Assembly: GCA_030390025.1 (NCBI GenBank) | Contig: CM059431.1 | Coordinates: forward strand, 127,598,001 to 127,662,000 | Reading direction: 5' to 3' | Source of the DNA: Squalus acanthias | Lineage: Eukaryota | DNA: 64,000 nt | Part shown: piece by piece, positions 1,126 through 57,076 of the stretch | How the letters are laid out: every line of letters starts with the position of its first letter | Numbering within the stretch: the stretch's first letter is position 1 | Made by a program: the position numbers and the translations under genes | The notes under the pieces: generated by a model | Seen by the model: only the letters and a program-made list of their open reading frames with translations | Database searches by the model: none | What the model was told of the DNA's origin: nothing

Positions 1126-2518
1126 TCCCGCAGTGTTCACCACTCACCGACATGAATGTGGTAGGGTAACGGGGGTAGAGGTGGAGGTACACGGGGACCC
1201 AATGTCGCGACCTCAGAAACAGTATAGTTTTCCCCAGGAAGCAGAGAAGGACATGGAAACTGCACTGAGCTCCCTGGTGGAACAATGGGTACTGAGGCCG
1301 ATAGCGACCCACGTAAATTCACCCCTATGGCCAGTTAAGAAGCCCGATCAATCATGGAGAGCCACGGCAGACTACCGGGTTCTCGATAAAGGTATTCCGG
1401 CATGCGCGCCCACGGTAGCAGCAGTGGCCGATCTAATAGGGAATATCCCTGCGGAGGCAACGACGTTCACTGTATTGGACATAGCTAACGGGTTCTGGTC
1501 TATCCCAGTAAGATGGGAGGATCAGTATAAATTTGCCTTTACATTCAAAGGGCAACAGTATACGTGGACGTGCCTCCCGCAAGGGTTTCATAACAGTCCC
1601 TCGATTTTCCATCAGTGTATGGCTAATGCTTTAAACAATTTCAGTCAGCCTAGCTAGTTGATCCAATACGTGGATAACCTATTATTATTCTCAGAAAGTG
1701 CAGAGGACCACGGGCCACTACTGGACGAGCTACTAAAACTAATACAATAGCAAAATATTGCGGATGCTGGAAATCTGAAATAACAACAGAAAATGCTGGA
1801 AATACTCAGCAGGTCAGGCAGCATCCGTGGAGAGAGAAACAGAGTTAACGTTTCAGGTCTGGGACCCTTCATCATTCTGATCAAGGGTCCCAGACCTGAA
1901 ACGTTAACTCTGTTTCTCTCTCCACGGATGCTGCCTGGCCTGCTGAGTATTTCCAGCATTTTCTGTTGTTATTTGAGCTACTAAAACTGTTGGGGGAGGC
2001 AGGGTTTAAGGCAAACCCCAAGAAAGTCCAAATAGGACAGGAGGTGGTGAAATTATTAGGATTAACAATTAGGGCAGGGGCGAAGAGGAGGGCAGTACAG
2101 AAACTACCCGCCCCAAAGAGTGTAACTGGGGTGAGATCTTTTCTTGGTATGATAGGGTATTGCAGGGATTTTATTGAAGGCTATGCAGCCACGGAAGCCC
2201 CTTTGCTTAGATTCCTTAGGAAAGGAGTAGGATGGGAATGGGATGAGAGTTGTAAGGAGGCATTTACTCGCCTAAAGGAAAATTTACAAACTGCACCCGT
2301 ACTAGGAGCAATAAACGGGAACGAAGATTTTTATCTGGAGGTAGCAGCTACTGGGCATAATTTGAGTGCAGTGTTGCTCCAAGAACGGCATGACAAGTTA
2401 AGGCCAGTGGCTTATGCCTCCCGAGTCCTGACAGATGTAGCGAGGGGTTACTCGAACTGTGAAAGACACCTTTTGGCGAACTATTGGGCCGTCAAACGTT
2501 TCCAATTATTTACAGGGT
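1120..2518 (+). pseudogene. pol: Retroviral reverse transcriptase and first half of the degenerate RNase H (tether)
   Basis: NSPLWPVKKPD, VLDIANGFWS, LPQGFHNSP; catalytic motif reads YVDN (1667-1678) after an in-frame TAG; then RSFLGMIGYCRDFI and LRPVAYASR. Interrupted at 1741-1974 and at 2519. Confidence 0.92.
1741..1974. mobile_element. Palindromic Penelope-like non-autonomous insertion
   Basis: Inverted repeat of about 95 bp around 1875; 14-bp direct repeat GAGCTACTAAAACT at 1727-1740 and 1975-1988; degenerate hammerhead-like cores. Confidence 0.75.
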
Positions 2519-3575
2519 TGTGGCGGATCGCCACCTAAACGAGCGCAATCCACTTTTCCGTCCATTGACAATAAATCGGGCACCTTGCCTTTAAGGCACC
2601 TTGGGGGAGAAATTCAGTATCGCCCCATTTGGGGCGCAATTATCGGCCGGGCGCAAAGATTAGCGCCTGGCGCTAATTATCGCCACCGACTGCAAACTTG
2701 ACTTTTATTGCCCCTGGAGGTGATTAGATTGCTAAATCAGGCGCTTCACACCTGTCTTAAGGCGCAAAGGCCGTGGAGTGAGGCGCTACCTCAGAGCGCT
2801 GGCAAAGCTCATGTGATGTCAGTCAGCAATGGAACACACAAACAATGGCCCGGGCCAGTTCTTAAAGGGGATGGTTAATCTTGCTTTCCATCCACATCCT
2901 GCTCATTGCAGCCTTGAATCTCAGCCTGGAGAGACCTGCACATCAAATGTGCTGGAAAGAACAATGGAGAGTACCAGGCAAAGAGCTCAGAGTGCAGCCC
3001 CCACAGACTCTTCTAAATCGATACAAGGAATGGCAGATCAAAATGAACCTGCAAAGTGCTGCTCAGTACCCAAAACTCCTTCACACAATGTTGAATCTCT
3101 CCAGAAGTCTCTCTCTCTCTCTCTCTCAGAATGCGTCGTTCAAAAATGGCACCAAGAATAAAAGGCAGGAAGCGGTCACCTTTAAATAGCGCTCCCCCTT
3201 TCCCTTCATGACTGCAGAACGCTCCCCTCAACCTGTCGTTGCTAGCGTCAGGCGGTAAGGCAGGGGGCGCCACTCAATTTCCGCTCCGGGGCGTTACCGG
3301 GGCGTTACGCACTCGACTGACGTCACGATCTGCCGGCGCAGGAGATCGTGGCAGTAGTGTTTAGCGCCGCCGCAAAATGTCTAGTTAAGGCGCTAACGGG
3401 AGGCGCAACCAACTGAATTTTCCCCCCTTGCCTTTAAGGCAGGAGAAAAGGAGTGGGCGGGGCCTCGGAACTTCCAGATTCTAGTGTTAGCAGCCATCTT
3501 AGCAAGCAGATGTAATAAAAAGCTTTTGTGTTCCACACATGGTCTCGGCCTTAATTCGTGTTTCGCGGCAGCCAC
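2519..3575 (+). repeat. 5' LTR of the nested Gypsy element (contains MITE-A)
   Basis: Matches 6492-7493 outside the MITE; AATAAA near 3514. Confidence 0.9.
2603..3426 (+). mobile_element. PIF/Harbinger-type MITE, family A, copy 1
   Basis: TIRs GGGGGAGAAATTCAG / CTGAATTTTCCCCC; 3-bp TSD CTT (2600-2602, 3427-3429); homologous to 25579-26479 and 30817-31689. Confidence 0.85.
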
Positions 3576-6471
3576 CGCTACCAATGGGAGTTCATCACTG
3601 CCATGGTGCTCTCGCCTCTCATCGGTGCAGATTTCCTGTGCGCCCACGGCCTACTGGTAGACATCCCTCGACACCGCCTCGTGGACATGAACACCATGTC
3701 CCCCATTCTGGGCGCCATGGCCCCCCGTCAACCCGCCGACATGGCGTCACAGTGCCACGCCCGGGCCACGGATGACTACTCGGCACTCTTGGCCGAATTC
3801 CCGGCCCTTACCAATCCGACCTTCTCTGCGGAGGCCGCCAAACACGGGGTGAAACACTTCATCCCCACCACAGGCCCCCCAGTGTACGCCCACGCCCGCA
3901 GGCTGGACCCCGCCAAACTGGAGATCGCGCGGACCGAGTTTGCCACCATGGAACAGCTCGGCATCATCCGCCGCTCCAACAGTCCCTGGGCCTCCCCACT
4001 CCACATCGCCCCCAAACCAGGCGGGGGTTGGCGCCCCTGCGGGGATTACCGCCGCCTCAACGACGCCACCACCCCTGATCGGTACCCCGTGCCGCACATC
4101 CAGGACTTCTCGGCTAGACTGGCCGGCTGCTCAGTCTTTTCCAAGGTCGACCTGGTGCGCGGCTACCACCAAGTCCCCGTCCACCCCGCGGACGTCCCCA
4201 AGACGGCCGTAATCACCCCCTTCGGCCTTTTCGAGTTCCTGCGGATGCCCTTCGGCCTCAAAAACGCGGCCCAGGCATTCCAACGGCTCATGGACTCGGT
4301 CCTTCGGGACCTGAAGTTCCTGTTCGTCCACCTGGACGACATCCTGGTAGCCAGTTCCTCCAAGCAGGAACACCTCGAACACCTTCGCATCCTGTTCGGG
4401 CGCCTCAGCGACCACGGGCTCATCATCAGCCCAGCCAAATGCCAGTTCGGCCTGGACAAGATCAACTTCCTCGGCCACCACATCACCCATGCTGGGGCCA
4501 TTCCCTGCCCACCAAGGTGCAGGCCGTCCAACAATTTCCACCGCACCACCATCAAAGGCTTCCAGGAGTTCCTCGGGATGGTGAATTTCTACAACCGCTT
4601 CATCCCCAAAGTGGCGTCCCTCATGAGGCCCCTGTATGAAGCCTTCCGGGGCAGGAGCGGCAAGATGGCGGTCGAATGGACGGCAGACGCATCAGCCGCC
4701 TTCGACTCCACCAAGACCGCGCTCGCCAACGCCACCCTGCTCGCGCACCCACGGCCCAATACCAGGGTAGCGCTCACCACGGACGCCTCCGACCACGCGG
4801 TCGGCGCCATGTATGAGCAGTGGGTCGACGGCGCCTGGCAACTACTTGCCTTCTTCAGCCGCCAACTACGCCCCCCGGAGGTCAAGTACAGCACCTTCGA
4901 CCACGAGCTCCTTGCGCTGTTCCTGGCGGTCCGCCATTTTCGTTTTTTGCTGGAGGGCCACCCCTTCACTGCGTTTGTCGACCACAAGCCCCTGACATTC
5001 GCAATGGCAAAGACAACCGACCCCTGGTCCGCCAGGCAGCAGCGCCAGCTCGCGGCAGTGTCCGAGTTCACCACGGACATCCAACACGTCTCCGGCCGAG
5101 ACAATGTGGTAGCTGACTGCCTCTCCCGCCCCGCCATCCATGCCGCACACCTGGCAGTCGACTATGCTCAACTCGCAGCAGACCAGATCACCGACCCTGA
5201 TCTGCTCTCCGCACCTACCAACCTACCAGGGCTACGCCTGGCCGACGTCGCCTGTGGCCCGACCACAGTCATGGTCAAGTACGACATATCCCTACGTCAA
5301 CCTCGGCCCATCGTCCCAGCGTCCTGGCACCGCCGGGTATTCGAGATTCTCCACAACCTCTCCCACCCCGGCACCCGCGCATCCCTCAAATTGGTAGCCA
5401 ACCGCTTTGTCTGGCGCGGCCTTCGCAAGGATGTGCGTACTTGGGCCAACTCCTGCCTAGCTTGCCAACAGGCCAAGGTGAAGAAACACACAAAAGCACC
5501 CCTCAAGGAGTTTACCGTCCCCTCGCGGAGATTCGACCACATCCACGTGGACATCGTTGGGCCGCTGCCGCCGTCGCAAGGCCACACGCACTTGCTGACG
5601 ATCGTTGACCGCACCACGCGCTGGCCCGATGCAATTCCACTGACCTCTACCACCACCGCCGACATCGCCAGAGCCTTCGTCAGCACCTGGGTCGCACGGT
5701 TCGGCGTCCCCTCCGACATGACGTCCGACAGAGGTCCGCAATTTACCTCTGAACTCTGGACCGTCGCACGCAATCTCGGGGTGACCATTCACCGCACCAC
5801 AGCGTACCACCCCCAAGCCAACGGACTGTGTGAGCGATTCCAAAGATCCTTGAAGGTATCTCTTCGAGCCAGCCTCCAAGACGGCGCCTGGACCGACCGA
5901 CTTCCGTGGGTCCTCCTCGGCCTGCGCACCGCGGTTAAAGAAGACCTCCACGCATCGGCAGCAGAGCTCGTGTACGGTCAGCCGCTGCGCGTACCCGGCG
6001 AGTTCCTGCCCACTGCCACGACACCCTGGTCAGCCGACCAGCAACGCCACGACTTCGCCGCACCGCGCTGCAGTTCGCCCCGGTGCCCATTGCCGACACG
6101 GCGAATCCACCTCACACGTCCCACTAAGCCTGCACCAGGCACGGTTCGTTTTCATCCGGCACGACGCCTACCGCGGACCCCTTCAACCCCTGTACGACGG
6201 GCCCTACAAGGTGCTACAGGCTGGGGACAAATTTTTCACCCTGCAAGTGGGCGACAGGACCGAAAAAGTGTCAGTTGACCGACTCAAGCCAGCACACTCG
6301 GAGCCCGGTGAGCAGGTCCCTGTAGCTCGTCCACCGCCATGCGGCCAACCTGCCCTCAAGCCGGTTCACCCGGCTGCTCCACGCCCGGCCGTTCCACGTC
6401 CACTGGCGTCCTACAAGAGCCGCTCCGGCCGGCCCATCAGACCGCCGCACCGTCTTGTCCACACCTCCTAA
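3558..6471 (+). pseudogene. pol: Gypsy pol (protease C-terminus, RT, RNase H, integrase)
   Basis: 906-aa ORF with IGADFL, WASPLH, CGDYRRLN, MPFGLKNA, HLDD (normally YLDD), TDAS, HHCC zinc motif, VDIVGPLP, SDRGPQF, NGLCER. Compensating frameshifts near 4505-4545; integrase tail (VSVDRLKPA) in ORF 6211-6471. Confidence 0.93.
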
Positions 6472-6491
6472 GCGGATTCTGGGGGGAGCTG

Positions 6492-7493
6492 TGTGGCGGA
6501 TCGCCACGGGCGCAATCCACTTTTCCGTCCGTGGACAATAAATCGGGCACCTTGCCTTTAAGGCACCTTGGGGTAAAAATTGAGTCGCGCCCCATTTGGG
6601 GCGCTAACCTCGCCGGGGCGCGACTTTTAGCGCCCCGAAAAAATTAGCGGCCCCGCGCCGGAACTTCAGTGGTTGCGCCCCAAGAGGGAAGCGGGGCGCA
6701 ACTGGAAGCACCCCGCATCCCTCTTGGGGCGCTGCGAGTGAATATCCTGGCGCTACGTGCCGCAGCGCCACGCGCTGCGGCATGTCGCGCCGCGGTATTG
6801 CAGGCCTTCCTCCCCTTCTTAAAGGGGAGGGGCCTTGCGCAGCGCGAACCGGGGCCCAGCTGGGCTCCCAGGGATCGGGAGTGCCGGCAAAAGAGCCCGG
6901 CACTCAAGAGAAGTGCCGGGCTCTTGGAGCGCAGCCGGCACTTCACGGTGGGGGGGCTTCACGGGGGCCGGGGACAGCAACGGGGGCAGGTGCTGGCAGG
7001 CGGCCAGCAACAAAAATGGCCGCCTGCCACCTCCCCTTTAAATATCGCCGCCCCGGCCGCACGTACGCCCCCCTGAACCCGTCGGACATAGCGTCTGGCG
7101 GTAAATCAGGGGGCGCGACTGAAGATCACGGCCGGGGCGCGAGCGGGGCGCTGCGCACGGCGATGACGTCATCGCCGGCGGCGCAGCGCCACAGGGCGCT
7201 ACCGGCTGCCGCCGCCGCTAACCTCCCACTAAATTTTTCGGGAGGCGTGGGCGGCGCTGCGCCCGGGCGTTAGCTGCTTTACGCCCCATTAGCGCCCATT
7301 TAAGGCGCTAACGGGAGGCGCAAGCAGCTGAATTTTTCCCCCCTTGCCTTTAAGGCAGGAGAAAAGGAGTGGGCGGGGCCTCAGAGCCTTCCAGATTCTA
7401 GTGTTAGCAGCCATCTTAGCAAGCAGATGTAATAAAAAGCTTTTGTGTTTCACACATGGTCTCGGCCTTAATTCGTATTTCGCGGCAGCCACA
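6492..7493 (+). repeat. 3' LTR of the nested Gypsy element (contains MITE-B)
   Basis: TGTGGC...GCCACA termini, preceded by PPT; matches the 5' LTR outside the MITE. Confidence 0.9.
6570..7342 (+). mobile_element. PIF/Harbinger-type GC-rich MITE, family B, copy 1
   Basis: TIRs GGGGTAAAAATTGAG / CTGAATTTTTCCCCC; TSD CTT (6567-6569, 7343-7345); homologous to 61388-62102. Confidence 0.85.
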
Positions 7494-8200
7494 ACAGGGT
7501 CATCTTTAATAACCTTACTGACATGTCATACCCTGACACAGATGCTATTGGACGGGAGGATAAAAGATGGGACAGTGAGTAGCAGTCGTATTGCCCGCTG
7601 GACATTGCTACTCTCCCAGATGAACCTGAGGATGGAAAGATTGGCGGAACCTAAGCTGGCCTTGGACATGATTTATCCAGGGATGAATCACATGTGCACG
7701 GTAGAAGGGGTATGGGACGTAGACCTGGGATTCCGGGCCGGGCAACATCCGACAGGGAGAGATATATATGTGGATGGGTCCAACTCGGTGACAAATGGAG
7801 AGCGCAGAACAGCGTGTGGGATTTATGACCCTGGGGCTGGAATAGAATAAAGTCATCAAACTCCCCAGCACACTGAGCGCACAGCAGGCCGAGCTGGCGG
7901 CTGTAGCTTATGTGGTCACACATCCCGAGGAATTCCCAACCCCCTACATAATATGCTCAGACTCGATGTTCACGGGCAATTCTTGCACTGAATATCTGGC
8001 AATATGGGCTAGACGAGGATTCAAGTCCGCCGACAGGGAACCGTTAGTAATCGCTCCACTGCTGAACACAATCCTGGGCGTTACGGGCAATAAAGAGGAG
8101 TATTACATTCAAAAAGTAAAGGCGCACTCAAAAACCGGGCCTAAATGGAAAGGTAACCAGAAGGCCGACGAGTTGGCAAAAAGGGGGCCAGGGAGAGAAT
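7494..8200 (+). pseudogene. pol: ERV pol continued: end of tether plus second, retroviral-type RNase H
   Basis: SSRIARWTLLL, then IYVDGS, SAQQAELAAV, ICSDS, W.RRGF, KVKAHSK, GNQKADELAK; frameshifted. Confidence 0.9.
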
Positions 8201-8416
8201 ACTTTGGGACCCGTACCGAGCTGGACAGATCGTGGCCATAAGGGATATGGAGGGCCCACAGGAGGTGAAGTTGCCCCTAGACCTGACCCAGGTTCAAGCA
8301 CAAGATACGGTTTTGAAAACCGTGATTAAGAAAAGGGTAGAAGGGGAACCAATTGAGGGTCCTTTTGGAGCAGCATATATAGTGGTCAAAGAGGGGATGC
8401 TGTTTAAAGGGGAAAG

Positions 8417-9694
8417 GTGGATCGTGCCCGGGGGGAGTTTATGCAGCTAGCTCACGGGGGTCCGGGAGCTGGACACCCAGGGCTGGAAACTACCTGGAAG
8501 AAAGTGGAAGAGGTGGGTTGGTGGCCTCATCTCAGGGAAGAGGTGAAGGAATATTGCAGTGAGTGCCTAGTGTGCGCTGTGAATAATCCAGACCCCCACC
8601 ATAGAAAGGCACCTTTGGGACACGTTAGGAGGGTAGAGGGACCATGGCATTCTATACAAATAGACTTCATTGGACCCCTGCCCACCACAAAAGCAGGCAA
8701 CAAGTATTGTCTAGTGTTGGTGGACGTTTTTTCTAAGTGGGTTGAGGCCTTCCCTTGTCGAATAGCCAGAGCGTTAAACACGGCTAATATCCGAGTAAGG
8801 GATGTGTTCTCCCAATGGGGATTGCCCCAGGTAGTGGAATCAGATCAGGGGAGCCATTTCACAGGACAAGTCATGCAGACCACCCTGAAACTTTTCGGGA
8901 TACAGGGAAAATGGCATGTGGCCCACAACCCCCAATCATCGGGAATAGTGGAAAGGATGAACCAGACTTTAAAGGAAAGGCTTAGGAAGGAGATAGGGGG
9001 GTACCCAAAGAAATGGGACAAGGTCCTGCCTCTAGTTCTCATGAATATCAGGGCCAGCCTCTCCAAAAGCGCAGGACACTCTCCATATGAGCTGATGGCC
9101 GGTAGGGCGATGAGGACCCCGACTCATGTGTTGGTACCGGTCCAAACCGAAGCTCAAACGAGGGAGATCAACCGGGACAGGTTCGTAAAAGACCTGTATG
9201 AGACCTTGAGGAAAGTACAATGGGAAGCTGCAAATAACATGGGAAGCCAGCACCAGAAGAATAGAATGCTGTTAGAGCCACAGAAAGTACAGGAGTGGAA
9301 GGTAGGGGACCAGGTCATGGTGAGAAACTATGCCCGGGTAGGGGCTTTCGAGCCACTGTACATGGGGCCATACAGTATATTGAACAAGGCAAGTCCTATG
9401 GTTTACGCAGTGCAGCTGCCAAGATGGACAAAGTGGTTCCACATTAATCAATGTAAACTCTATGACCCCGGGAAGAGGGGAATAAAACGAACCAGAGCCC
9501 AGGGAACGATCATGAGTTTGACCAATGTAAGTTTTCCTCCCATGTTGTGGCATGATGATGAAAACCCAGAGAGCGGAGCGGTGAGAAGGAGCAGTCGAAC
9601 ACCCCGACCTAGGGTGCCTTGGACGCCTCCTCGCACACCGACCCCGAGCCGCAAGCGGTCCCAACCGGACAGTAAGGAAAAAGGGACGCTGTGA
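8417..9694 (+). CDS. pol: Retroviral integrase (open 425-aa frame; frameshift at its 5' edge)
   Basis: H..H..CLVC zinc motif, QIDFIGPLP, ESDQGSHF, SGIVERMN (DDE triad), GPY/SH3-like C-terminus and a basic Arg/Pro-rich tail. Confidence 0.9.
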   Translation: MDRARGEFMQLAHGGPGAGHPGLETTWKKVEEVGWWPHLREEVKEYCSECLVCAVNNPDPHHRKAPLGHVRRVEGPWHSIQIDFIGPLPTTKAGNKYCLVLVDVFSKWVEAFPCRIARALNTANIRVRDVFSQWGLPQVVESDQGSHFTGQVMQTTLKLFGIQGKWHVAHNPQSSGIVERMNQTLKERLRKEIGGYPKKWDKVLPLVLMNIRASLSKSAGHSPYELMAGRAMRTPTHVLVPVQTEAQTREINRDRFVKDLYETLRKVQWEAANNMGSQHQKNRMLLEPQKVQEWKVGDQVMVRNYARVGAFEPLYMGPYSILNKASPMVYAVQLPRWTKWFHINQCKLYDPGKRGIKRTRAQGTIMSLTNVSFPPMLWHDDENPESGAVRRSSRTPRPRVPWTPPRTPTPSRKRSQPDSKEKGTL

Positions 9695-9769
9695 TTGCAG
9701 CAATCACAGCATGTATAATATGTATATAACTTAAGTTTGACCTGTGGAGGGAAGACCTCTCACAGAGCA

Positions 9770-9798
9770 TTGCTATTTTTCTTTTCCTTTATTTGCAG
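9770..9798 (+). promoter_or_regulatory. Putative env splice acceptor
   Basis: Long polypyrimidine tract TTTTTCTTTTCCTTTATTTGCAG ending at 9798, 25 nt upstream of the signal-peptide ATG at 9824. Confidence 0.6.
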
Positions 9799-9823
9799 AT
9801 GCGAGTCGAACGGAGGATGCAGG

Positions 9824-12419
9824 ATGGAATGCACTCTGTGGCTGGGCCTGTTGGTAATCCTGATCAGATCAGGACAGATGGAGCGAGGCGACATCGAGAT
9901 GTCATTTACTTCCGGGTGTATGGGAGGAGCCGGGCCCACCGTAACACAGGGAGGTAGAGCACGGGGCACTGACGGGATAGCTACATACTTCCATGAGGGA
10001 GTATGGCCGGGTTGGTTAGGGTCAAATTCCACTAAATATTCCAATTACACTGGTTACAAATTCGGTGAAGCATCAGTGCCCAGCCCCAAATTAAATATCA
10101 CCACCAAAAAGGTACTGGTGAACGAGGGAAGGCAAGTGTGCCTAGAATGCTGGGGAAGTTCCTCTGTGGGATGGTGGTGGTGGCTACAGAAAACAGACAA
10201 GGCAAAGGGTAATGAATCCATGGATTGGGAAAGATTGGGGAACAACTCGTACAGATCGATTGCGGGGACAAAGGGGGGGTGAAATTATGTTGGGACAAGT
10301 GGTGAAAGGAGGAACAAGGGGTTTATGTGTGTGTGGGAGGATCGGAACGTAAATGCCAGAAGCGGGTGTCCATCGCTTTTAAACGGCAATGGCAAGATTC
10401 CGGGTCTGAAATAGGCTGGACTCAGAGTTTCGATTCGTGTGTGGTCACAAATCCTCCAAACGCCGTCAATGCTACCGAACTAGTAGCGCACAATAAGAAA
10501 CCCCTACCATCAGCCCCAAAGACACGGGATAAAGAGGTTAAGTGCCCCATAACGACACCCGGACCTAGGAATGGGTTCATATTGATTCCAACAGGGAAGG
10601 TGTTGTACCATGACGTGCATTATGAGATAGCATCTGTTACCCTTAATTTGGCAAAGGTACGGCTACCCCGGTGGTACCCAGCTGAAACGAAAAAATAGTA
10701 CGAGAAACTATTAAAAGAAATGTGCCGGCAATTCTACGAGTTGAACTATGGGGAAGAAAGTCGTATGGTCCAAAAATGTGCGGGTTAGGTTGATTTGGCT
10801 ATGATAAATTGACCCTTAGTGTTAGGGGGGGATTAAATATGTGGGGTTATGGGGATAGGATAGGAAGGGATATGTTAGGGGGAATTAAATACGTGGGGTT
10901 ACGGGGATAGGGTGGGATATGTGTCGGTGCAGGCTCGATGGGGATTCTGTGTGAGAAAGCAGGGATAGGGTACTGGATTTGGATGATCAGCCATGATCGT
11001 ATTGAATGGTGGAGCAGGCTCGACGGGCCGAATGGCCTACTCCTGCTCCTAGTTTCTATGTTTCTATGTTTCTATGTTTCTATGATTTGTATAAACGCGC
11101 TGACAACAGTCACACCGGTTTGGGGAGACGGAAGAGGAGATTGATCAATGACGCGGCCACGGTGTTTAATACGGGAACGTCACTGGTCAATTGTATAGAT
11201 GATGCCCAGCTGCAAACGCAGGTCAATACCTTACGGGATCAGCTAAAGAGGATACTGGGGGAGGGTAATGAGATTGAGGGACAGGAATTACAAGAAGACC
11301 AAGTAATGACCATGCACCTAAAAGAATTGATAGCTGAGCTGGAAACTCACGCCCAGACCATAAACAACTTCATAAAGGAGGACCGGAACGCGTTGGACCG
11401 GGCCGCGCAAGATGATGCGTGTGTTATGTACGGTGCCTGGTTATTAACCGAGGGGTGTAGTAATTTAGAGGATCTGGAGCAAGGTCGCGTACCATCGTGG
11501 ATTGACAACAGACACCTAAGAGCCTTGAGCACTTATGACAATCTCATGAACCCGTGCCAGCTACGGTTGGCCTCTGAAGCGTACCCAGTCCCAATCATTT
11601 GTGATCAGTACAACCAAACCATAATGGGAATAGTTCTCAGGATGCCAGTGATGGATCAGTCACAACGGTCAGTGCCGGTATATCGGGTGGAAAATGTTGG
11701 TATTATCCGATGTGGGGTATATGTGCGGCATCATGGGGCACCTCCGTATGTGGTTAAGTGGGGGAACTCCATAACCGGCACAGATCTGAAGGGATGTCAG
11801 GAAAGGGGTGCACATGTCGTGTTGTGCCCACATCACCTGAATGTGTTCGACCGACCGGTATGTGGTTTTGAATCTGAAAGCGCACAACCGATCAACTGTA
11901 CCATGGAGGTGATGGTTCAGAGGCACGTCCCAGGTTGTCTATGAGGGAAACGGAACCTACTGTGTCACCACCAGTGTGAATCAGTATAGGGTACACAATG
12001 ATACCTGGTGTCCAATTTACGACTCGACCTTTTGTTTTAAACCCCCGATAGAGGTTCAAGTAGCACAGGAAAGGATAATCCCTATTTCAGATCACACCTC
12101 AGTAAATCTCACAGTGAGTGGTATTTTACCAAACCTCCAAGATTATATATCACATTTTGGGTATGATATCCCACCATTACCTGAGCATTTGACAAAACTG
12201 GTAAAGGATCTGGAGCTTTCCCAAAAACATTACTACACTCTCCAGCAGGAAAACAGAGAAACGCGAGAGGAGATCAGGGAAATGACCACCCCACCTTGGT
12301 GGGACATTGGGTTTGATATTGAAATTCCTCCCTGGATCAGAATTGCCTCACATGTATTGATAATTGTGCAATTAATTATGGTGTTGTATCTGTTCAGGTT
12401 ATCGTGTAAAACAAAATGA
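9824..12419 (+). pseudogene. env: Envelope glycoprotein, class I fusion (F-like) type, with Ig-like N-terminal segment
   Basis: Signal peptide MECTLWLGLLVILI; furin site RRKRR (11126-11140); heptad-like helix; Cys-rich region; C-terminal helix and TM segment WIRIASHVLIIVQLIMVLYLF. Stops, frameshifts and a SINE insertion. Confidence 0.8.
10768..11083 (+). mobile_element. 5'-truncated HE1-like SINE inserted in env
   Basis: Nearly identical to 39055-39340; ends in the CR1-like tail GATCAGCCATGATC...(TTTCTATG)n. Confidence 0.85.
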
Positions 12420-22840: not shown

Positions 22841-25523
22841 GGTTGAGATGTGATGCCCCCCAAAAATCATTGGCATTCATTGTCAGGACTCACACATGAT
22901 CAATGGCCACTTGGGCCAGGTAGTGGTAGGTAAACCATGAGGCTGTGCTATAAGGGAGTCAATGCCTTCATTAGTATAGCCAGGCATGATGGCACTGAAA
23001 TGAATTAAGGCTGAGTGAGAGTTTGGCATAGGTCAGCAGTAAATACGAAACAAGTTGACAGGAAAAACATTTTTGGAATGCATATTTGAGTCAACTATCA
23101 GTTAAATGCTACTGTTGGATTGTTTTACCTTGGCAGCTTTCTTATTACACGCCATCTTCTTTCATATCTATTCCCAAGTCCTGCGGGTAGTAGCACAACT
23201 TTGACTTTACTCATCACTCTTTGTCAGGCATGCTGCATGACTGTTCACTGGCGAGGGTAGCTGGAGTGCCCTGCATCCACATCATACACCAGCAACCCCA
23301 CTTCAAACAGGGGGTGCTGTGCCACTTCATCATATGACCAAAACTTAATTTGCTGCCTCCACATTTATTTTTCCTTCCCTTGGATTTTGTCAGACACTTT
23401 GGGGAAGAACGTTAACATAATTTTGCCCAATTTCTGGGCAAAAAATGAAGGATAGGGGAACGAATTTCCCGCGCCCAATCTGACCTGGAGTGCACAGGCT
23501 GCCAAATCGTAAGCCGATGACTTCTAGGTGTGTAAGGCGTGTGCTTGAAACAGGTGTTAGGAAACCTAACGCCAGTTGTAGGACCTCGGTTGAAATTTGA
23601 CTAGAAGTGGATGGAACTTGCGCCATTCATGCTCTGTCCAGTTATTACAGACAGTGAGCGGCCTAGCCAGCAGTCCTTAAAAGGAGAACACTGAAAAAAA
23701 AAACAGGAAACATTTGAATGGTTAATATATACACCCACACAAATAAATGGTTTACTTACACGTTGTATTTAGAAGAGTTGTTAGGATGACATTCCACCTA
23801 TAGAACTTGTATTAAATCCTACTGGCAGGTGCAAGAAGTGAACAAAGGTAGGCCATATTTCCCCTTCCTTTCAAACATTGACCAAAAACACAAGTGCATC
23901 CGATTGCAAGCTAAAAAAAGGTTTGCGAGTCATCTATCGATCGCCAGTTTACAGTAACACAATTTAAAGATTTAAGAAGATACCACATTATCAGTTGTTT
24001 TGTTTTATTTCTTTCACATTTATTACATAAGTCTCACACAACCTCTTTATTGTCCTGCTGATGTTTTGCAGAAGACCTTTACACACTGGGCTCCTGTTGG
24101 ACAGAGCGAGTAATGTGAAGCCAGCAAGCTCAGTGGAAGCACAAATTCACTAATTGAAAATGACAATCCTTCCACACAACTGTGCAGATGAGGTACTACT
24201 AGGCCTTTCCAATGTGATGAATTCAAGAACTAAAGAAAGGAGAAAGGATTATAACTGAAACAGAAACAAGACTGCAGTCAGAGATGATAATGGGTGAAAA
24301 GAAAAGGAAGCAACAATACCCTCAGGCCACCAGGTGCTGGCACAGTAATATAAAAACTTTAAATGTTTTTAGTGAAAAATGGCTAATCAACATACAATAT
24401 TCAGTTTACTTGTCATGAACTCTATGAATTTTAATTAATGGGCTATTGGTAGCGCATACCTGAAGTCCAGATATGTCCTCGCAGTGCACAAAGCTGCCCA
24501 GGCACACTAAAGGCAGAAATCTACCCCTATCTCATTTATATAGTTCTGCAGAATTTTGCTCTGATCCCCAAAGATAATCAAATAAAATGTCAAAACACTT
24601 CTCATCTTATAACTCTTATTATATGGTATCTAACCCTAGACACTTGCTTTTCACAGTTGACATTTCCATTGTTCAGCAGCACAAAAGCTATCATGTTCCA
24701 AGGAGTATTTATTCATCTTTATCTATGTTTTTCCATGTAGCCTTCAATCCCATTCCTAACCACGTATTCATTCAACTTTTTAAGGATCTCATCCGTATCA
24801 GTTTCCAACAATAAAAAACAACTTATGTATGCATAGTACCTTTACTGTAGTAAACACGCTAAGATACTTCATACTTCACAAAGACAAAATGGACAACAAA
24901 TGGTAGAAGAAGAGTTGGGAGAGATGAACAAATAAAGGCTTTAAGGAAGCTTTTATTGTGGGGAAAGAAGTAGTAAGGCAGAGAGGTTTAGGAAGGGATT
25001 TCTACATGGAGCTAGGGAAGGTGCAGGGATAGGGTGGCTTTGTAAATGGTCTCAAGGATTTTAGAATCAATGGCCCCTATATTAACATGCAGGCGGCTTC
25101 CGAGAAGGGGGTGGAATTGTGCGGGCGAAACCTGTAACACTGTCATGGTAAACTTAACTAAACCTAAAAGTGACTAAATGTACCGACAAGCTTTGAGGGC
25201 AAGAAACTGCTTGGCTAAAATATTTGTAAAATAAGTGATGTGTTGGTACTTTTCCTTCAAAAGATAAGATCTTGAAAATTCTGTGAGAACCACGAGTCAA
25301 CAACCCTGCAGATGTGAAAAACAACAACTCTCTCCAATCATTGAATGTCTGGCCTTGGTTAACTAAGCATCAAAACAGATAAATGTGAGAAGTCGCACAA
25401 CACCAGGTTATAGTCCAATAGTTTTATTTGAAATCACAAGCTTTCGGAGCACTGCTCCTTGGTCAGGTGAAGTGAAGAGATGTATATCGGCACAGCATAT
25501 ACGCCGATATACATCTCTTCACT

Positions 25524-25560
25524 TCACCTGACGAAGGAGCAGCGCTCCGAAAGCTTGTGA
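25524..25560 (+). ncRNA. Minimal type I hammerhead ribozyme motif
   Basis: TCAC-CTGACGA-A-GGAGC agc GCTCC-GAAA-GCTT-GTGA: stem I, conserved core, stem II and a palindromic AGCT in place of stem III. Confidence 0.75.
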
Positions 25561-25578
25561 TTTCAAATAAAACTGTTG

Positions 25579-26479
25579 GGGGGAAAAATTCAGTTGGTTG
25601 CGCCTCCCGTTAGCGCCTTAAGAGGGCGCTAATGGGGCGCAAAGCATCTAGCGCCCAGGCACGGCGAAGTTTGTGCCGCTCGCGAAATTAACTAGACATT
25701 TTGCGGTGGCGCTAAACACTACCGCCACGATCTCTTGCGCCGGCAGATCGTGACGTCAGTCGAGTGCGCAATGCCCCGGTATCGCCCCGGAGCGGATATT
25801 GAGTGGCGCCCCCTGCCTTACCGCCTGACGCTAGCAACGACAGGTTGAGGGGAGCGTTCTGCAGTCATGAAGGGAAAGGAGGAGCGCTATTTAAAGGTGA
25901 CCGCTTCCTGCCTTTTATTGTTGGTGCCATTTTTGAACTACGCATTCTGAGAGAGAGAGAGAGAGAGAGAGAGACTTCTGGAGAGATTCAACATTGTGTG
26001 AAGGAGTTTTGGGTACTGAGCAGCACTTTGCAATTTCATTTTGATTTGCCATTCCTTGTATCGATTTAGAAGAGACTGTGGGGGCTGCACTCTGAGCTCT
26101 TTGCCTGGTACTCTCCATTGTTCTTTCCAGCAGATTTGATGTGCAGGTCTCTCCAGGCCGAGATTCAAGGCTGCAATGAGCAGGATGTGGATGGAAAGCA
26201 AGATTAACCATCCCCTTTAAGAACTGGCCCGTGCCATTGTGTGTGTGTTCCATTGCTGACTGACATCACATGAGCTTCGCCAGCGCTCTGAGGTAGCACC
26301 TCGCTCCTCGGCCTTTGCGACTTAAGACAGGTGTGAAGCGCCTGATTTAGCGCTCCAATCACCTCCAGGGGCGATAAAAGTCAAGTTTGCAGTCGGTGGC
26401 GATAATTAGCGCCAGGCGCTAATCTTTGCGCCCGGCCGATAATTGCGCCCCAAATGGGGCGATACTGAATTTCTCCTCC
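25579..26479 (-). mobile_element. PIF/Harbinger-type MITE, family A, copy 2
   Basis: Reverse complement of 2603-3426; TSD TTG. Confidence 0.88.
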
Positions 26480-27141
26480 TTGGACTATAACCTGGTGTTG
26501 TGCGACTTCTCACATTTGTCCACCCCAGTCCAACACCAGCATCTCCACATCATCAAAACAGATAGGAAGAGAGAGAGAGAGAGAAAAACAACATTATCCA
26601 CACAGTTTGGGACATGAATGCTGTGGCCGAGTTGCCAAGTTTTGGGGTATAAGTGTTATTGAACACTGACATTCGGGGCTATAGTCGATGGTGATCTGGT
26701 CAGTTACCAGTTAAAGTCATACGTCTAGTCATCGTTGAATTGACCTCTCATCTGGTGAATAGTATGTATGTGGTTTTGCTTATAATCGCCTGAGCTTAAA
26801 GTAAATTATTTTAGATGCTTGCTTGTAATAAGTACATGAGTTGAGTACAGTTTGTATTCTGGTAATTACTTGTAAGCTCTTGTTGATTTTTAAGTAAAAG
26901 AAGTTTCACAGATTCATTGGGTTTTGTGTTTACTGTTCCACAGGTCTGAACTCTATAAACTGTCAGACAATCAGAATGTCTTACAAACCCGGAGTCACCA
27001 GAGCGGGTCAGATTCTGCAATCTCAACTCAAGTGAACCAATTCATTTCGACTTCTGGGTTTTGCCTCTCCAAGCTGCGCAGTGGGAATGATGTGCACCCG
27101 CATGAGACGTTGTCAGCTGTATTTAAAGGGATATTGCACAA

Positions 27142-28915
27142 ATGGAAACTGGAGGTGTTCAGGCTGGATGGTGGACCCAGATTTAATGATGGCTCACTGG
27201 AATTGCTGTTGGGAGCAGTCAGGAACAGGAGGGACAGACTTTTCCCCAGCAATGGGAGGAAGAAACCTGTGGCTCTCACCATGAAGGCTTGGTTGGAGGT
27301 AGCTGAGGAGGTGAGCAGCAGGAGCGTTGTGCCCAGTTCTTGGATACAATATAGGAAGTGGTTTAATGACCTAACCAGGTTAGGAAAAGTGAGTACATTT
27401 GCTGATTCAACTACGTCTTGTGGTCAAAACACCCGCATTCTTTCACTCAATCTTCCTAAGCATTCTCCATCACATCACTCCTCACACCCACTCAACTTCC
27501 AGCAACACCCAGCCTTCACTTTCTATGCATTTCATCACCTCCCCATTCATCTATCCACATTGCCACTCACCCCAATCCTTATGCAATGTGATGTATCTGT
27601 ATCAAAGTCACCCTCACCGAATGCACTGCATCCATCAGGTGAATACCTCACCTTCACTCACTCACAGGTCTGTTTTTTCACCCCTTGTAGGAGAAGAGAG
27701 CACAAAACACAAGGGAAAGGGAGAGAACTGGAGGTGGCCCACCACAAATAGTCCAGCTCACAGAGGAGGAGGAGGCCCTAGAGATAAGTGGCATATCCCT
27801 CTCAGTCAGAGATGGAGAGAAAGGAAGATCGCAGATAGCTAGTGACAGAATTAGAAATATCTCTGATACACATATGCTGACTTCATTTCATCAATGACTG
27901 AACGATGAGAAGACTGAGTACGGTGATTGCCAAGATTGTGACTTTGCCACGACTAAATCATATTCCTTTCTTTTGTCTTGCAGGGCCTTCATGCATACAG
28001 CAAGTGTCACAGGATATCCATGAGGACGATTCGTCAGAGGACCTCATTCCTTCTGAGGGTGCACCGTCACAGGATGTACAGCCATGCACCAGCACAAATA
28101 CTCACACCTCGGTGGGTCCACTTAGACAGTTGGGATTTCACCTGGTGTTTCACATCTCACAAGTGAGCATGAACAGACACTGGTGGCAAGGACAGTTGTG
28201 GAGTCTGCAACGGGGGGCGCAATCCTCTCCAATCTCTGCTCAGCTGGACACAGATGCTGAATCCCGGGGGCTATCATTGAGAAGGAGAATGCTCAAGGTG
28301 CAACTTAGCCAGACGTGCCACCCACACTCTCCATAATAACGGCAAGGAAAGAGGAGTCCAATGTGATCGCTAGTGGATTGGTGGCGCAGGGAATTGTGAG
28401 AATATCTGTCATGGAGAGAGTAGCCGCCTCCATGGAGCTTCAAGCACAGCTCTCAACTGAGTCGATGCAGGCATGATCACGGCCAGCAGACTTTGGATGC
28501 CACCTTAAACAGGATGACAGATATCATAACTATGGTCTTACACCGCATCACAGATCTCCACCAAGCTGGTCTGCAGCTGAGTGATAGGACTGATGCGACG
28601 CTGGCCCAGGAGACGGGATGATGGTGAGAGGGGGCTCCCACTTCTCGTCCGTTGCCTCACCTCCTTCCCTCTCATGTCCCCAGCCAGTATCCAACATTCT
28701 GCCTCGTCTCCCGATGGCCAAGTCTGCCCCTGCACAAGTGCAGGTAGAGAAGTCTCTGGTGGGGCCTTCAGGGGCTCCAAAAGCCAGAGGGCGTAGGCCA
28801 AAAGCATCTCAGCAGTGAGGGCAGGGTTCTGAGCAGCCTGCCTCGACCTCTGCTGAAGCCATGTGAGATGTACCACATAGAAGTGGTAGGAAGCCTAAGG
28901 TCAAGAAATTTTATT
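27142..28915 (+). pseudogene. Harbinger Myb/SANT-like DNA-binding protein, three exons
   Basis: PRFNDGSLELLLGAV..AWLEVAEEV..QYRKWFNDL; donor GTGAGT at 27389; acceptor at 27690 before EKRAQNTRERERTGGG; acceptor at 27983. Confidence 0.82.
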
Positions 28916-29193
28916 CACCAAGGTTATACACATGGGTGTTTCACAAAATGTCATGTTGTTAATTTTCATTATTTTATAATCCCACATAAAATTAATTGAT
29001 TAGCACCACTTCCACATCTTGCCCATTATTGCGTCCTCAGTGCCAACTTGACCTTTTACTTATTTCATGATGAATTTCAATACACGACGTGACACATTGA
29101 ACGGTTGTGCAATGGGGGAATGAGTGGCTGAAGGATGGGTGGTGGTCTTGGTGTTAGGGGCGGATCACAGGATTTAATTTCCTGTGTTTTACA

Positions 29194-30460
29194 CTAGTTG
29201 AACCTTTGCGATATTAGGGCATCCATGGCATCCCAGGCAGCAATGTAAGCGGCTAGTCTGGCGATGGGGGCACCATCTTCATCCTCCTCCTCCTGCTCCT
29301 CTATATTCTCCTCAGTCAAAGATGAGTGATGAGCGTCTTTGTCCTCCACCACCTGCAGTTCTCTCTGCTGCGCAATGTTGTGCGGGATGCAGCACACCGC
29401 TATCATTCTTGAAATCCTCACTGGCGAGTACTGAAGGGTGCCTCCAGACCTATCTAGGCACTTGAAGCGCATCTTCAACATTCCGATGGCTTGCTCTATG
29501 ACACACCTGGTGGTCAGGTGGCTCTCGATGTAGCGTTCCCGCACCTCATTGGTAGGTTCCTCACACGTGTCATGAACCAAGTTTGAAGGGGTTCCCTTGT
29601 CTCATACGATTTAGCCTTTTCCTGGAACAAAAACGTCTGGGATGTTGGACTATGAACTATGAAGGCATCATGACAGCTTCCAGGGAATCTGGCGCAGGCC
29701 TGCATGAACCTCTTCTTGTGGTTGCACACCAGATGTGCAGTGATGGGCGAATATTCCTTGCGATTTATAAAAACTCCTGGTTGCTGTGGTGATGCTCCGA
29801 TTGCCACGTGTGTGCATTCGATGGCATCTCGTACCTGTGGGAATCCAACCAGAGAGGCGAATGCGAGTGCCCGTTCATTCTGGCTATTTTCATCACAGAG
29901 GAAATTTACAAAATTGTCGGCCCTGGCAAACAAGCCATCAGTGATCTGCCTTGTGCATTTATGTGCAGTCGACTGGGAGATCCTGGATATGTCTCCAGTA
30001 GCACCCTGAAAGGATTCGGAGGCTATAAAATTGAGGCCGATGGTCACTTTCACAGCCACTGGTAATACGTGGTCACCAGGTCCAGCAGGGAGCAGGTCTT
30101 CCTCTAGGAGGCTGCAGATGTCTGCCACCACCTGACGTGACAACCTGAGCCTCTTCCGAGAGGTCAAGAAAGCTGAGCTTGTGTCTGTAAACCATGTGTC
30201 CCTCCTGCGACCTCAGCCCCTCTCCTGTGCACCTCTCTCATTTGCACCTCTCTCCTATGCACCTCTCTCCTGTGCACCTCTCTCCTGTGCACCTCTCTCC
30301 GTGTACCTCTCTCTTGCGCACCTCTCCCCTGTGCACCTCTCTCCGTGTACCTCTCTCTTGCGCACCTCTCTCCTGTGCACATGCTGATCATCGCTGCCGT
30401 GAATGGTGATGTTTTTCCTCTTCGGATGTGCTGTCAAACACATCTAACGCGCCTTCCATC
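29194..30460 (-). pseudogene. Harbinger (HARBI1-like) DDE transposase
   Basis: [56 protein letters not shown], acidic tail; frameshifted. Confidence 0.9.
30219..30381. repeat. Tandem array of about 15-bp units (CCTCTCTCCTGTGCA) in the transposase 5' region
   Basis: About ten imperfect copies visible directly. Confidence 0.9.
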
Positions 30461-30816: not shown

Positions 30817-31689
30817 GGGGGAAAAATTCAGTTGGTTTGCGCCTCCCGTTAGCGCCTTAAGAGGGCGCTAATGGGGCACAAAGCAACTAGCGCCCGGGCG
30901 CGGCGATATCTGCGCCTCTCGCGAAATTGACCGGACATTTTGCAGCGGCACTAAACACTACCGCCACGATCTCCTGCGCTGGCAGATCGTGACGTCAGTC
31001 GAGTGCGCAACGCCCCGGTAGCACCCCGGAGCGGATATTGAGTGGCGCCCCCTGCCTTACCGCCTGCTGCAAGCAACGACAGGTTGAGGGGAGCGTTTTG
31101 CAGTCAGGAAGGGACCGGGAGAGCGCTATTTAAAGGTGAACGCTTCCTACCTTTTTATGTTGGTGACATTTTTGCACCACACATTCTGAGAGAGAGGGAG
31201 AGAGACTTCTGGAGAAATTCAATGCTGTGTGAAGGAGTTTTGGGTACTGAGCAGCACTTTGCAGGTTCATTTTGATTTGCCCTTCCTTGCATCTATTTAG
31301 AAGAGACTGTGGGGGCTGCACTCTGAGCTCTTTCCCTGGTACTCTCCATTGTTCTTTCCAGCAGATTTGATGTACAGGTCTCTCCAGGCCGAGATTCAAG
31401 GCTGCAATGAACAGGATGTGGATGGAGAGCAAGATCAACCCTCCCCTTTAAGAACTGGCCGGCGTCATTGTGTCTGTGTTCCATTGCTGACTGACATCAC
31501 ATTAGATTCACCAGCGCTCTGAGGTAGCGCCTTGCTCCTCGGCCTTTGCACCTTAAGACAGGCTCCAATCACCTCCAGGGGCGATAAAAGCCAAGTTTGC
31601 AGTCAGAGGTGATAATTAACGCCAGGCGCTAAACTTTGCCCACAGCTGATAATTGCGCCCCAAACAGGGCGATACTGAATTTTTCCCCC
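30817..31689 (-). mobile_element. PIF/Harbinger-type MITE, family A, copy 3
   Basis: TIRs GGGGGAAAAATTCAG / CTGAATTTTTCCCCC; TSD AAT. Confidence 0.88.
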
Positions 31690-34516
31690 AATGTGTTTCA
31701 AGAACTGGGAGCCAATGGAGGTCAGCAAGGACAGGTGATGGGAGAAAAAGATTTAGACCTGAATTTTCTGGGGTCCATGTGGGCGCAATGGGGCGCTGGT
31801 CAGGTGGGAAATTTGAAATAAGTTGGAGTGGGTCGGGAACCCGCCATCATCCCACCCCCATTGCGCCTTTCCCTCGGGCACGTTTGCCGGTGCATCAGCA
31901 ATGCGAACGGCAGATGCGGGTGAACTAATTCAAATGATTATCAGCTTGTTGTCAGACTCTTAAGCTCCTTTTTCAGCCTACCTTTCAAATTTCCCTACAT
32001 GACTACAGGCTTCACACAGCTCGGGAACCACCTCTGTCAAACTGAGGCGGGAGTTGAGTGGCCATTGCTCCAGCTGATTAGTTGACAGTATGAAATGTAG
32101 TATAAAAGTTCCCACCTCACAGTTGATCACTTTCCTCAGGCAGAAGCTGTTGCTGACTGCATTCCCCGCACAGATTTAGCTTTCTAGAGGCTGCAAGTGT
32201 TTCCAGCAAAGTCGCCATCCAGTCTCACTTCTTTCGTAGAACCTATCACACCATTGACAGATTGCTTCTGTCGTCACTACTTGGCCTGCCTTCCATTACA
32301 TAAGCGTGGGTGCCATTTATACTGTCTCACCTTGGTCCTCAGAATCGTACCACGATGAGCCCCAACACCAGCAGCACCAACAACAACACCACCAACCTTC
32401 TCCTCATCCACCTGATGCTGCACAGGACAGAGGGCATCAGCGCAGGACTGCACCGCGCAGGAGGTGATACCCCCAACACAGGGTATACAGGCAGAGGATG
32501 AGCTTCATCAACATGACAGGGATGACAGGAATGGCAGGACAGCTCAGTCTAGCGGAGTGCACATCCTGTGGCATGTGGAAAGTCATGGACGCTTCGCGTT
32601 GCATGGAGGACTACATGTGCACTAAGTGTCACCAGTTGCAACGACTCGAGCGACGGTTTACGGAGCTTGAGCGGCAACTGGAGTCACTGTGGTGCATCCG
32701 CGAGGCTGAGAACTACATGGATAGCACATTTAGTGAGGTGGTCACCCCGCAGCCTAAGAGAGTGTGGACAGAGAGCAAGTGGGTGACCACCAGACAGAAG
32801 AAGACCAGGCAGGCAGTGCAGGAGGCCCCGGAGGGCATCTCGCTCTCCAACCGGTATTCTATTCTGAGTACTGGTGGGGGCGATGGTCCCTCTGATGAGT
32901 GCAGTCAGAGCCAAGTCCTCAGCAGCACGGGTGGCTCCGCTGCACAGGGGGGGAGGAAAAATAGTGGAAGAGCAATATTGGTAGGGGATTCAATAGTGAG
33001 GGGAGCAGACAGGTATTTCTGCGCCGCAGTCGTGACTCCAGGATGGTATGTTGCTTCCCTGGTGCCAGGGTCAAGGATGCCATCGAACGACTGCAGAGCA
33101 TTCTGGGGGGGAGAGGGTGAACAACCAGATGTCGTGGTCCATATCGATACCAATGACATAGGTAGAAAGAGGGATGAGGTCCCGCAGGCAGAGTTTAGGG
33201 AGCTAGGAGTCAGATTAAAAAACAGGACCTCAAAAGCAGTAGTCTCTGGATTACTCCCGGTGCCACGTGCTAGTGAGTCAAGAAATAGGAGGATAGAGCA
33301 GATGAATGCGTGGCTGGAAGGATGGTGCAGGAGGGAGGGCTTTAGATTCCTGAGACATTGGGACCATTTCTGGGGGAGATGGGACCTGTATAAGCCGGAC
33401 AGGTTGCCCCTCAACATAGCCGGGACCAATATCCTCACCGGAGGGGTGGGGGGGGGGGCGGGGGCGGGTGTAGGGTGTTTTTGCGTGTCCCGTGTTTCTA
33501 TGACTCTCCCTTGAGTCGACCCGTGCCACAAAAACTCCCCGGTTTGGGTTGTTTCCCTTGGACGGCAGGAGCTTACAACAATAGTCCCTGCCCAGCCCGT
33601 CGATTAGCGGGTTATCCCACAGAGAGAGAGAGACCAAGGCCAGATAGGTCTTCTCCTATGCCCGATGCGCAGCGTCCCCAGCGGGATTACTGTGTAACCC
33701 GGCCGTGACCGGATGCCACCCGGTTGGTCTTCCGAATTATACCGCGAACCACAAGCCCCACAACCCCCAAGTTCGGACCCAAGGAGTTACTATGGATAGA
33801 TTATAAATGATTCAGACAAAATGAAACGGTTCAGGTTGGTCAAAGATCAATTCCTTTTATTACTCTCACAAAAACGACAATCCCTACTCCTCTCGCTTAC
33901 GGCAGAACGAGGAGGTGACCGTGGACACTAGCTTATAACTTTAGACTAAAATACGCCCGAACCAACCCCTTCCCAGAATCTAAGCCTAGATAATGGAAAA
34001 ACCCTTCTAACTAAACCCCTCTCCCGGTTTGGTCAGAACCCACACTTGGAAGCCTCCTCACACACACACACATGCTAGCCTGCGTCTTGGACACTTGCAG
34101 TTCCTCAGCAGCCAAACACGCGGGCGGTCCTGGGGATTTCTTGAGGTGTATGCTGGATATAATTACCAGCGCTTGTCGTTGATTCACGCGGTCCCGGCTC
34201 CATTCGAATCCAGAGATAAAACCGAGCCTAACAGAGGCATGCGATGAGGCCTAGAGCGTTACGTTCAGACGGTACGACAAGGCACTCACTTCGGGCGTTC
34301 CTGGAGAGTTGACGGACGCGTGGTTATGTGGAGAACCCCGTTATAGATGGTAGAGAAAAGCAAGCAAGCAAGCATCCCCAAAGTTCAGCATGTTTATACC
34401 CCGCGCAATACACAAAACTTGCTGGGCGATTCCTGGTTACCATGGTCGCAGAGATGCTAGTTGGCCTTCCTGGTGATGTCTTTGTCCTGGATTAGTCATC
34501 ATGAAGAAAACAATGG

Positions 34517-34735
34517 AAAAACTCAGCAGGCCAGGCAGCATCCGTGGAGAGAGAAACATAGTTAACGTTTCAGGTCGAAGACCTTTCGTCAGAACTCCCA
34601 GTTCTGATGAAAGGTCTTCGACCTGAAACGTTAACTCTGTTTCTCTCTCCACGGATGCTGCCTGGCCTGCTGAGTTTTTCCAGCATTTTCTGCTGTTATT
34701 TCGGATTTCCAGCATCCGCAGTATTTTGCTATTGT
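34517..34735. mobile_element. Palindromic Penelope-like insertion (same family as 1741-1974)
   Basis: Inverted repeat centred near 34597; 15-bp TSD TGAAGAAAACAATGG (34502-34516, 34736-34750). Confidence 0.82.
34600..34636 (+). ncRNA. Minimal type I hammerhead ribozyme motif (mirror copy on - at about 34559-34596)
   Basis: AGTT-CTGATGA-A-AGGTC ttc GACCT-GAAA-CGTT-AACT; the minus-strand copy has CTGACGA. Confidence 0.75.
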
Positions 34736-55535: not shown

Positions 55536-55539
55536 GTGT

Positions 55540-56078
55540 CTCCGGGCGCATCGCCCCGTTAGCGCCCCGGACTCTAAATTGGGTATCGCCCCCTGAAGTT
55601 GCTCTGGGCGACGACAGCGACAGCTTCAGGGGACACATACTGGGCGGCTGGCCGCTACCGGGACGAAAATTAAAGGGGAGGTGGCCGGCTGCTGTGAAAA
55701 AATTGTGTCGTTTTCGTTGCCGCTCCGGTCGCGGGTTGTTGGCGGGTTTGGTGCCACGATCGCTCAGCCCAGCACTTTACTTGAGTGTCGGGCTGATCGC
55801 ACGGCACCCCCACTCCCCGCTGGTCCAGGTAGGTGGCTTCTTCTTTGGCTTGGGCCCTTCTCTTTAATTGAGGGAAGAGCCCCTCGTACGCGGCAGCGCT
55901 ATGCGGCCCAGTGCGTAGCACTGCTGAGCTGTGCGCCCTGCTCCTGCCCCAGGAAGGAAGTGGAGCGCTTGATTTAGCGCTTCACTTACCTCCGGGGGCG
56001 GTAACCCGAATTTAGCAAGCGGGGCGGAACTTCCGTGCCTAGCGCAAAATGTCTCGCCTCCCGGATGGATTTCTTCGC
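55540..56078. mobile_element. GC-rich MITE-like fragment related to families A and B
   Basis: Repeated TTAGCGCC / GGGCG motifs; termini not found. Confidence 0.45.
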
Positions 56079-56079
56079 C

Positions 56080-57033: not shown

Positions 57034-57076
57034 TCACAAGCTTTCGGAGCTATCGATTTGCTCCTTCCTCAGGTGA
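57034..57076 (-). ncRNA. Minimal type I hammerhead ribozyme motif
   Basis: Minus strand TCAC-CTGAGGA-A-GGAGC...GCTCC-GAAA-GCTT-GTGA. Confidence 0.7.

Follow-up and report, generated by a model that had tools for sequence, protein, structure and literature searches.

A retroelement interrupted at one base in both LTRs

We analysed a stretch of 64,000 nucleotides from Squalus acanthias (assembly GCA_030390025.1, contig CM059431.1, positions 127,598,001 to 127,662,000 of the forward strand), referred to here as the window. Positions 2519-7493 hold one broken retrotransposon of the Ty3/Gypsy type. Each of its two long terminal repeats (LTRs) is interrupted at the same base by a different miniature inverted-repeat transposable element (MITE): MITE A (2603-3426) lies in the 5' LTR and MITE B (6570-7342) in the 3' LTR, and retroelement and MITEs are all on the forward strand. 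The internal region (3576-6491) is a broken pol with reverse transcriptase (RT), RNase H and integrase, and the Pfam families in its frame follow the Ty3/Gypsy order (RVT_1, RT_RNaseH, Integrase_H2C2, rve). The outer ends are TG...CA and a polypurine tract lies near 6481. In these respects the copy resembles other Ty3/Gypsy elements with nested insertions. It differs from a typical member in the absence of a primer site and gag, in a target duplication that reads as 7 bp and in the different insertions at one base of both LTRs.

The 5' LTR (2519-3575) consists of a part before the MITE (2519-2602), with a 16-bp unit at 2580-2595, the start of a second unit and the left CTT at 2600-2602, and a part behind it (3427-3575), with the right CTT at 3427-3429, a GC box at 3455 and AATAAA at 3514. 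The corresponding parts of the 3' LTR are 6492-6569, which is 6 bp shorter than its counterpart and ends in the left CTT (6567-6569), and 7343-7493, which begins with the right CTT (7343-7345) and closes with CA. With the MITEs excluded, the LTR pair differs at 7 of 224 columns and by two indels. The 5' LTR lacks its last base at the edge of an internal deletion; between it and pol neither primer site nor gag is found, and protease-like sequence follows directly. The loss looks like a deletion private to this copy, since contigs of two sequencing runs (X2 and X7) continue differently before 3575, with loose ends before 3573/3575.

These contigs belong to a comparison of positions 2300-7700 with four public sequencing runs (X1, X2, X7 and X11), in which run depth does not stand for copy number. 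The retroelement is flanked by a target duplication (2512-2518 and 7494-7500, both forward) of 7 bp, or of 6 bp plus one extra base; duplications of Ty3/Gypsy elements typically measure 4-6 bp. In contigs of X1, X2 and X7, three of the four runs, the host junction is present without the element, 2514 being joined directly to 7497. The matching duplication, the paired LTRs and the empty host junction support arrival by a single integration. Relatives of pol were also sought in viral contigs, where three pattern matches were obtained and none was confirmed.

The four runs seem not to contain this particular copy, because X2 (about 95% of it covered) and X1 (about 55% covered) have, at several positions, only contigs whose base differs from that of the window, and they therefore cannot confirm the assembly. 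No contig piece among those listed spans the junctions either, as would be expected of a misassembly or of a chimera of two separate elements. Nevertheless, we consider such an artefact quite improbable: the 7-bp duplication matches, the empty host junction occurs in three runs, all four MITE junctions are clean and in register, and the LTRs are separated by ordinary substitutions, in a proportion that the internal region would predict.

The runs contain MITE-free forms of the LTR across the site in X1, X2 and X7 (joints 6569-7365, 2602-7365, 6570-7350 and 6563-3429). Run depth over the right half of the LTR (3427-3575 and 7343-7493) is far below that of the internal region, and several LTR variants occur at the joints. 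The family seems to carry variable LTRs on a conserved pol.

The retroelement itself sits in another broken element (1-2518 and 7494-12419), which is retrovirus-like, with protease, RT, an RNase H-like domain, a second RNase H, integrase and an env-like frame. This layout would fit the lokiretroviruses as described in the available part of PMC9040795. The env-like frame had no Pfam or PDB sequence match; by its features it lies near fusion/env clusters, at low recognition. A near-perfect palindromic insertion of about 200 bp splits the RT region of this host element (1775-1977) and occurs a second time at 34505-34691.

Two related MITE families

MITE A measures 824 bp and MITE B 773 bp, and each is flanked by CTT on both sides. 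The initial annotation had placed them at these coordinates, at the same base of both LTRs, equally oriented and each with a CTT duplication; the alignment and the family terminus bear this out. The register is set by that terminus, five G followed by AAAAATT, which is also found in the copies outside the retroelement. CCT and TTG had been candidates for the duplication and were dropped, as the terminus fixes CTT. Outside copies had likewise been reported and are present, all on the reverse strand. Two belong to A, at 25579-26479 (96.5% identical to the LTR copy, duplication CAA in element orientation) and 30817-31689 (90.6%, duplication ATT), and one to B, at 61388-62102 (86.5%, duplication TAA/CAA with one mismatch). 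Compared with the outside A copies, MITE A in the LTR has lost about 70 bp near its right end, and contigs of all four runs have loose ends behind 3388 within it.

Both MITEs were assigned to the PIF/Harbinger superfamily as putative non-autonomous elements. The duplications are 3 bp long and exact in four of the five A and B copies (CTT, CTT, CAA, ATT), the fifth having the one mismatch, and all five copies end in short (14-16 bp), G-rich inverted repeats starting with G. None of ten open frames from A and B copies matched a Pfam family, and the copies have no coding capacity. Elsewhere in the window, 6 of 78 frames searched (180 being listed) contain Harbinger-type remnants of DDE_Tnp_4 and Myb_DNA-bind_5 domains. 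Membership rests on anatomy, because no such remnant lies between ends of the A/B type within the window. A scan of metagenome contigs for the MITE-end patterns returned no locus.

Several Harbinger-like sequences accompany the MITEs in the window. A 3.5-kb element at 59845-63325, with matching ends, a TTT duplication and a Myb/SANT remnant, contains the outside B copy. At 26894-30212 lies what is left of a two-gene Harbinger element, with Myb/SANT on the forward and DDE_Tnp_4 on the reverse strand and with ends not located; a 15-bp tandem array occupies 30198-30389. A third, more distant relative of A and B is found at 55500-56080, without recognisable ends. In addition, a frame at 32468-33511 matches GDSL-like lipase/acylhydrolase and is possibly a remnant of a LINE ORF1.

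It had been proposed that A and B share only their ends. Instead, they align colinearly, with 389 of 693 columns identical (56%). Identity reaches 93% in the last 42 columns and 73% in the first 70, is 66% in columns 591-800 and falls to 37% in the middle. Two internal motifs are common to both (2859/6816 and 3179/7035). These TTAA-bounded motifs had been considered a separate nested element, an idea that was dropped since both families carry them at colinear places. A and B represent two old sister families.

Their homology bears on the proposal, also made in the initial annotation, that gene conversion or gap repair, with a free-standing copy as donor, turned an inherited MITE of one family into one of the other. 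Between A and B, 241 columns of an alignment of 912 are diagnostic, i.e. the outside A copies differ there from the outside B copy. Of these columns the 5' element covers 233 and has the A state at 232. In the 3' element, B states predominate between columns 13 and 894, and column 7 already sets it apart from the 5' A copy. A donor tract would thus have to span column 7 to about 897, with only a few homologous bases left. The homology of A and B, strongest over the 42 columns at the right end, could favour such a tract, and the 3' element shows the A state at five of its six final diagnostic columns, so that few bases support its B-type right end. However, column 894 has the B state, and at three of the five the only outside B copy has apparently undergone CpG decay. 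A B donor would moreover be only 56% alike, while near-identical A donors abound. Alu replacement takes place between subfamilies much closer to each other than A and B are. Complete replacement of an Alu subfamily is on record as one event among about 153 elements (PMC554112, in part). Excision in the superfamily is reportedly precise and leaves no element ends for priming repair (PMC2836001, in part). Because almost no MITE homology is left to anchor the tract, and because of this mode of excision, conversion from a free-standing copy is weakened, and we regard it as highly improbable.

Target preference at the LTR site

PIF/Harbinger elements prefer extended targets, 9 bp in plants and 15 bp in vertebrates, and their excision is usually perfect (PMC2836001, in part). 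The target of zebrafish Harbinger3_DR is a palindrome of 15 bp (PMC3016246, in part). Against its consensus the interrupted LTR site matches at 11 of 15 bases, a score of at least 11 being reached at 25 of 63,985 window positions. That the site is near-palindromic, as first described, holds true; the palindrome had been centred on CCT, one base off the duplicated CTT. Within the LTR the site falls into a 16-bp tandem unit (2580-2602 and 6547-6569), and both MITEs occupy the second unit (11/15) and not the first (10/15).

The preference is visible in the window as well. A target matrix was built from six outside insertions with both ends and a 3-bp duplication (two A, one B and three of other families); the remaining candidate pairs, low-scoring or in alternative registers, were left out. 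The six sites score 10, 10, 6, 9, 4 and 7 against the Harbinger3_DR consensus, and a score of at least 10 is reached by two of the six versus 175 of 63,985 window positions (Fisher p = 1.1e-4). Among the twelve half-sites, A occurs at -4 in 10, A at -6 in 9, C or T at -1 in 10 and T at -8 in 8. With the LTR site held out and flank widths of 6-9, the site falls into the top 0.2-1.3% of the window and ranks 1-5 among 228 LTR positions; real sites that were left out have their median in the top 0.6-0.9%. The LTR site is thus a good target, not shown as the unique best. Under this preference, two independent LTR insertions would share a base with a chance of about 0.1-0.4 (widths 4-9), versus 1/228 without it. 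Read in element orientation, CTT and the duplications of the three outside A/B copies all have A or T as their last base, which may explain the common orientation of A and B, three sites only being available. A scan of viral contigs for the LTR-site pattern gave no locus.

Another repeat site in the window is filled by an A copy in one of four copies. The inverted-repeat elements concerned (25378-26520 and 56985-57740) share one site between their arms, and the A copy lies in one of the four arms.

Among the systems described so far, Harbinger3_DR (Sinzelle et al., 2008, via PMC3016246 and PMC2836001, in part) is close to the situation found here: it is a vertebrate element whose target is extended and near-palindromic and whose duplication measures 3 bp; the LTR site agrees with its consensus at most bases and the half-sites of the window follow the same pattern. 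However, Harbinger3_DR duplicates CWG, whereas CTT, CAA, ATT and TAA/CAA are found here, the preference here looks looser, and A and B are non-coding. A CWG duplication also characterises the NuwaI group of PHIS (PMC4482050), and none of the five A and B copies has CWG on either strand. Tourist-like MITEs such as mPing (PMC2836001, in part) are, like A and B, non-coding, with short inverted ends, a 3-bp duplication and an extended target. mPing is a plant element with a TAA/TTA duplication and a 9-bp target, however, and A and B are about 800 bp long and GC-rich.

Independent insertion and exchange between LTRs

On balance, we consider it probable that two related Harbinger-type families inserted independently at one preferred target base. 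A Ty3/Gypsy-type element would have integrated once, with both LTRs identical and, as we infer, empty. LTRs of retrotransposons are described as identical at integration (PMC9744471 and PMC6894440, each in part). Each LTR would then have offered the same near-palindromic site of 15-19 bp, resembling the extended target of vertebrate Harbinger transposases. Later, A would have entered the site in the 5' LTR and B that in the 3' LTR, each duplicating CTT; the sources would be two abundant, related, non-autonomous Harbinger-type families, presumably moved by a Harbinger transposase. This possibility had been raised in the initial annotation and gains support from the match of the site to Harbinger3_DR and from a matrix score like that of real window sites, the site not being clearly the best of the LTR. 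The MITE-free LTR forms of X1, X2 and X7, the other repeat site filled by A in one of four copies, the A-like state of the 5' and the B-like state of the 3' element, and an LTR divergence that calls for no foreign LTR also speak for it. It would cost about p squared, p being the chance of a hit per site. The case is best read as a new example of the known target selectivity of Harbinger elements.

Several observations weigh against independent insertion. A hit at one base in both LTRs is estimated at 1e-5 to 2e-4 per element, from the local density of three outside A/B copies and six outside elements in all over about 59 kb; in a genome with very many LTR pairs, one or a few such cases may be expected, and a scan would find them. 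The MITE-free LTR joints in the runs all carry other letters and hence represent relatives, not the exact empty LTR. Flank widths of 4-5 place the LTR site at the top 5-7% of the window and at rank 11-15 of 228 only, and leave-one-out analysis favours widths 4, 6 and 8 about equally. The matrix is based on only six sites of several families, three of them A/B. On its left side the LTR site lacks the most conserved base, A at -4. An equal 11/15 match within the LTR (7436-7450) stays unused, and none of 25 other window positions scoring at least 11 is filled. Finally, MITE A looks about as old as the retroelement, with 16 private changes in 801 columns (2.0%) versus 1.6% per LTR branch, derived from the LTR pair (p = 0.67), and this fits equally well with inheritance of A and a later swap.

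In that alternative, A would have resided in U3 of the 3' LTR of the parent element and been copied to both LTRs; A would then have been excised precisely from the 3' LTR, and B would have entered the regenerated site. The first hit would account for the common base and orientation. Because the GC box and AATAAA follow downstream of the site, it probably belongs to U3, and precise excision has been reported for the superfamily (PMC2836001, in part). B is perhaps younger than the retroelement: it differs from the dominant X11 contig at 1 of 169 bases and the internal region at 52 of 2,390, a gap that is not significant (p = 0.26). The internal count is based on six X11 contigs among those listed, one low-depth contig with 15 differences having been left out. 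The two B copies did not differ in a relative-rate test (19 vs 22, p = 0.76), and CpG decay yielded no usable age for the MITEs. The ages thus fit an early and a late independent insertion and, equally, an inherited A with a later swap. Nevertheless, inheritance ranks below independent insertion unless filled parents multiplied: both hits are still needed, an excision comes on top, and the parent must have stayed active although its LTR was 800 bases longer. No A-filled sister element occurs among the matches listed, and we judge this course of events unlikely.

A further possibility is that A and B hit the site in different members of the LTR family and that one LTR of the present copy was then overwritten, either by ectopic conversion from a B-filled (or A-filled) LTR or through two co-packaged RNAs at reverse transcription. 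Here, LTR homology on both sides would anchor replacement of the whole MITE, and the 36 and 41 bases beside the site are identical in both LTRs, the differences lying farther out; this identical tract is not significant, however (about 0.08 by a rough count with six clusters of differences). Such an import would require two insertions, in whichever family members, and one conversion or irregular strand transfer in addition, so that the chances are pooled over all members and the rarity is eased. Recombination between co-packaged RNAs is documented in PMC6894440, the available part of which also describes the second strand transfer as yielding identical LTRs. The divergence of the LTR pair fits twice the internal branch, and being no higher than predicted it makes a foreign LTR unnecessary. 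No second filled LTR was found among the matches listed, a weak argument. Taken together, we hold import from another family member to be rather unlikely.

Our literature search, of partial coverage, returned no case in which both LTRs of an element carry different MITEs at one base. PIF of maize is said to have inserted repeatedly at one site, a report that this search did not recover. The sections of PMC2686159, PMC8437027, PMC9744471 and bioRxiv 10.1101/2022.12.06.519325 available to us contain no such precedent. Replacement and parallel insertion of Alu elements (PMC554112, in part) come close: another subfamily is found at or near the same site, and the same two explanations compete. Those cases concern orthologous loci between species and closely similar SINE subfamilies, however, whereas here paralogous LTRs of one element hold DNA transposons that are only 56% alike.

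It is tempting to speculate that a MITE-filled LTR lineage was mobile, with the present LTRs stemming from co-packaged A-filled and B-filled RNAs, or that a MITE was replaced by a relative of 56% identity, although we regard this as doubtful. If true, the LTR pair would record a breach of the rule of LTR identity at integration or a replacement of DNA transposons at the family level, and the sister LTR would serve as a built-in control. It would bear on the hitch-hiking of MITEs on retrotransposons and on the identity of LTRs at the start. Under independent insertion, the locus represents a natural experiment, in which two initially identical sites each received an insertion at one and the same base, from related families. 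Harbinger target choice in this genome could then yield identical-site insertions, which would be a warning for LTR dating and for taking shared insertion sites as proof of common descent.

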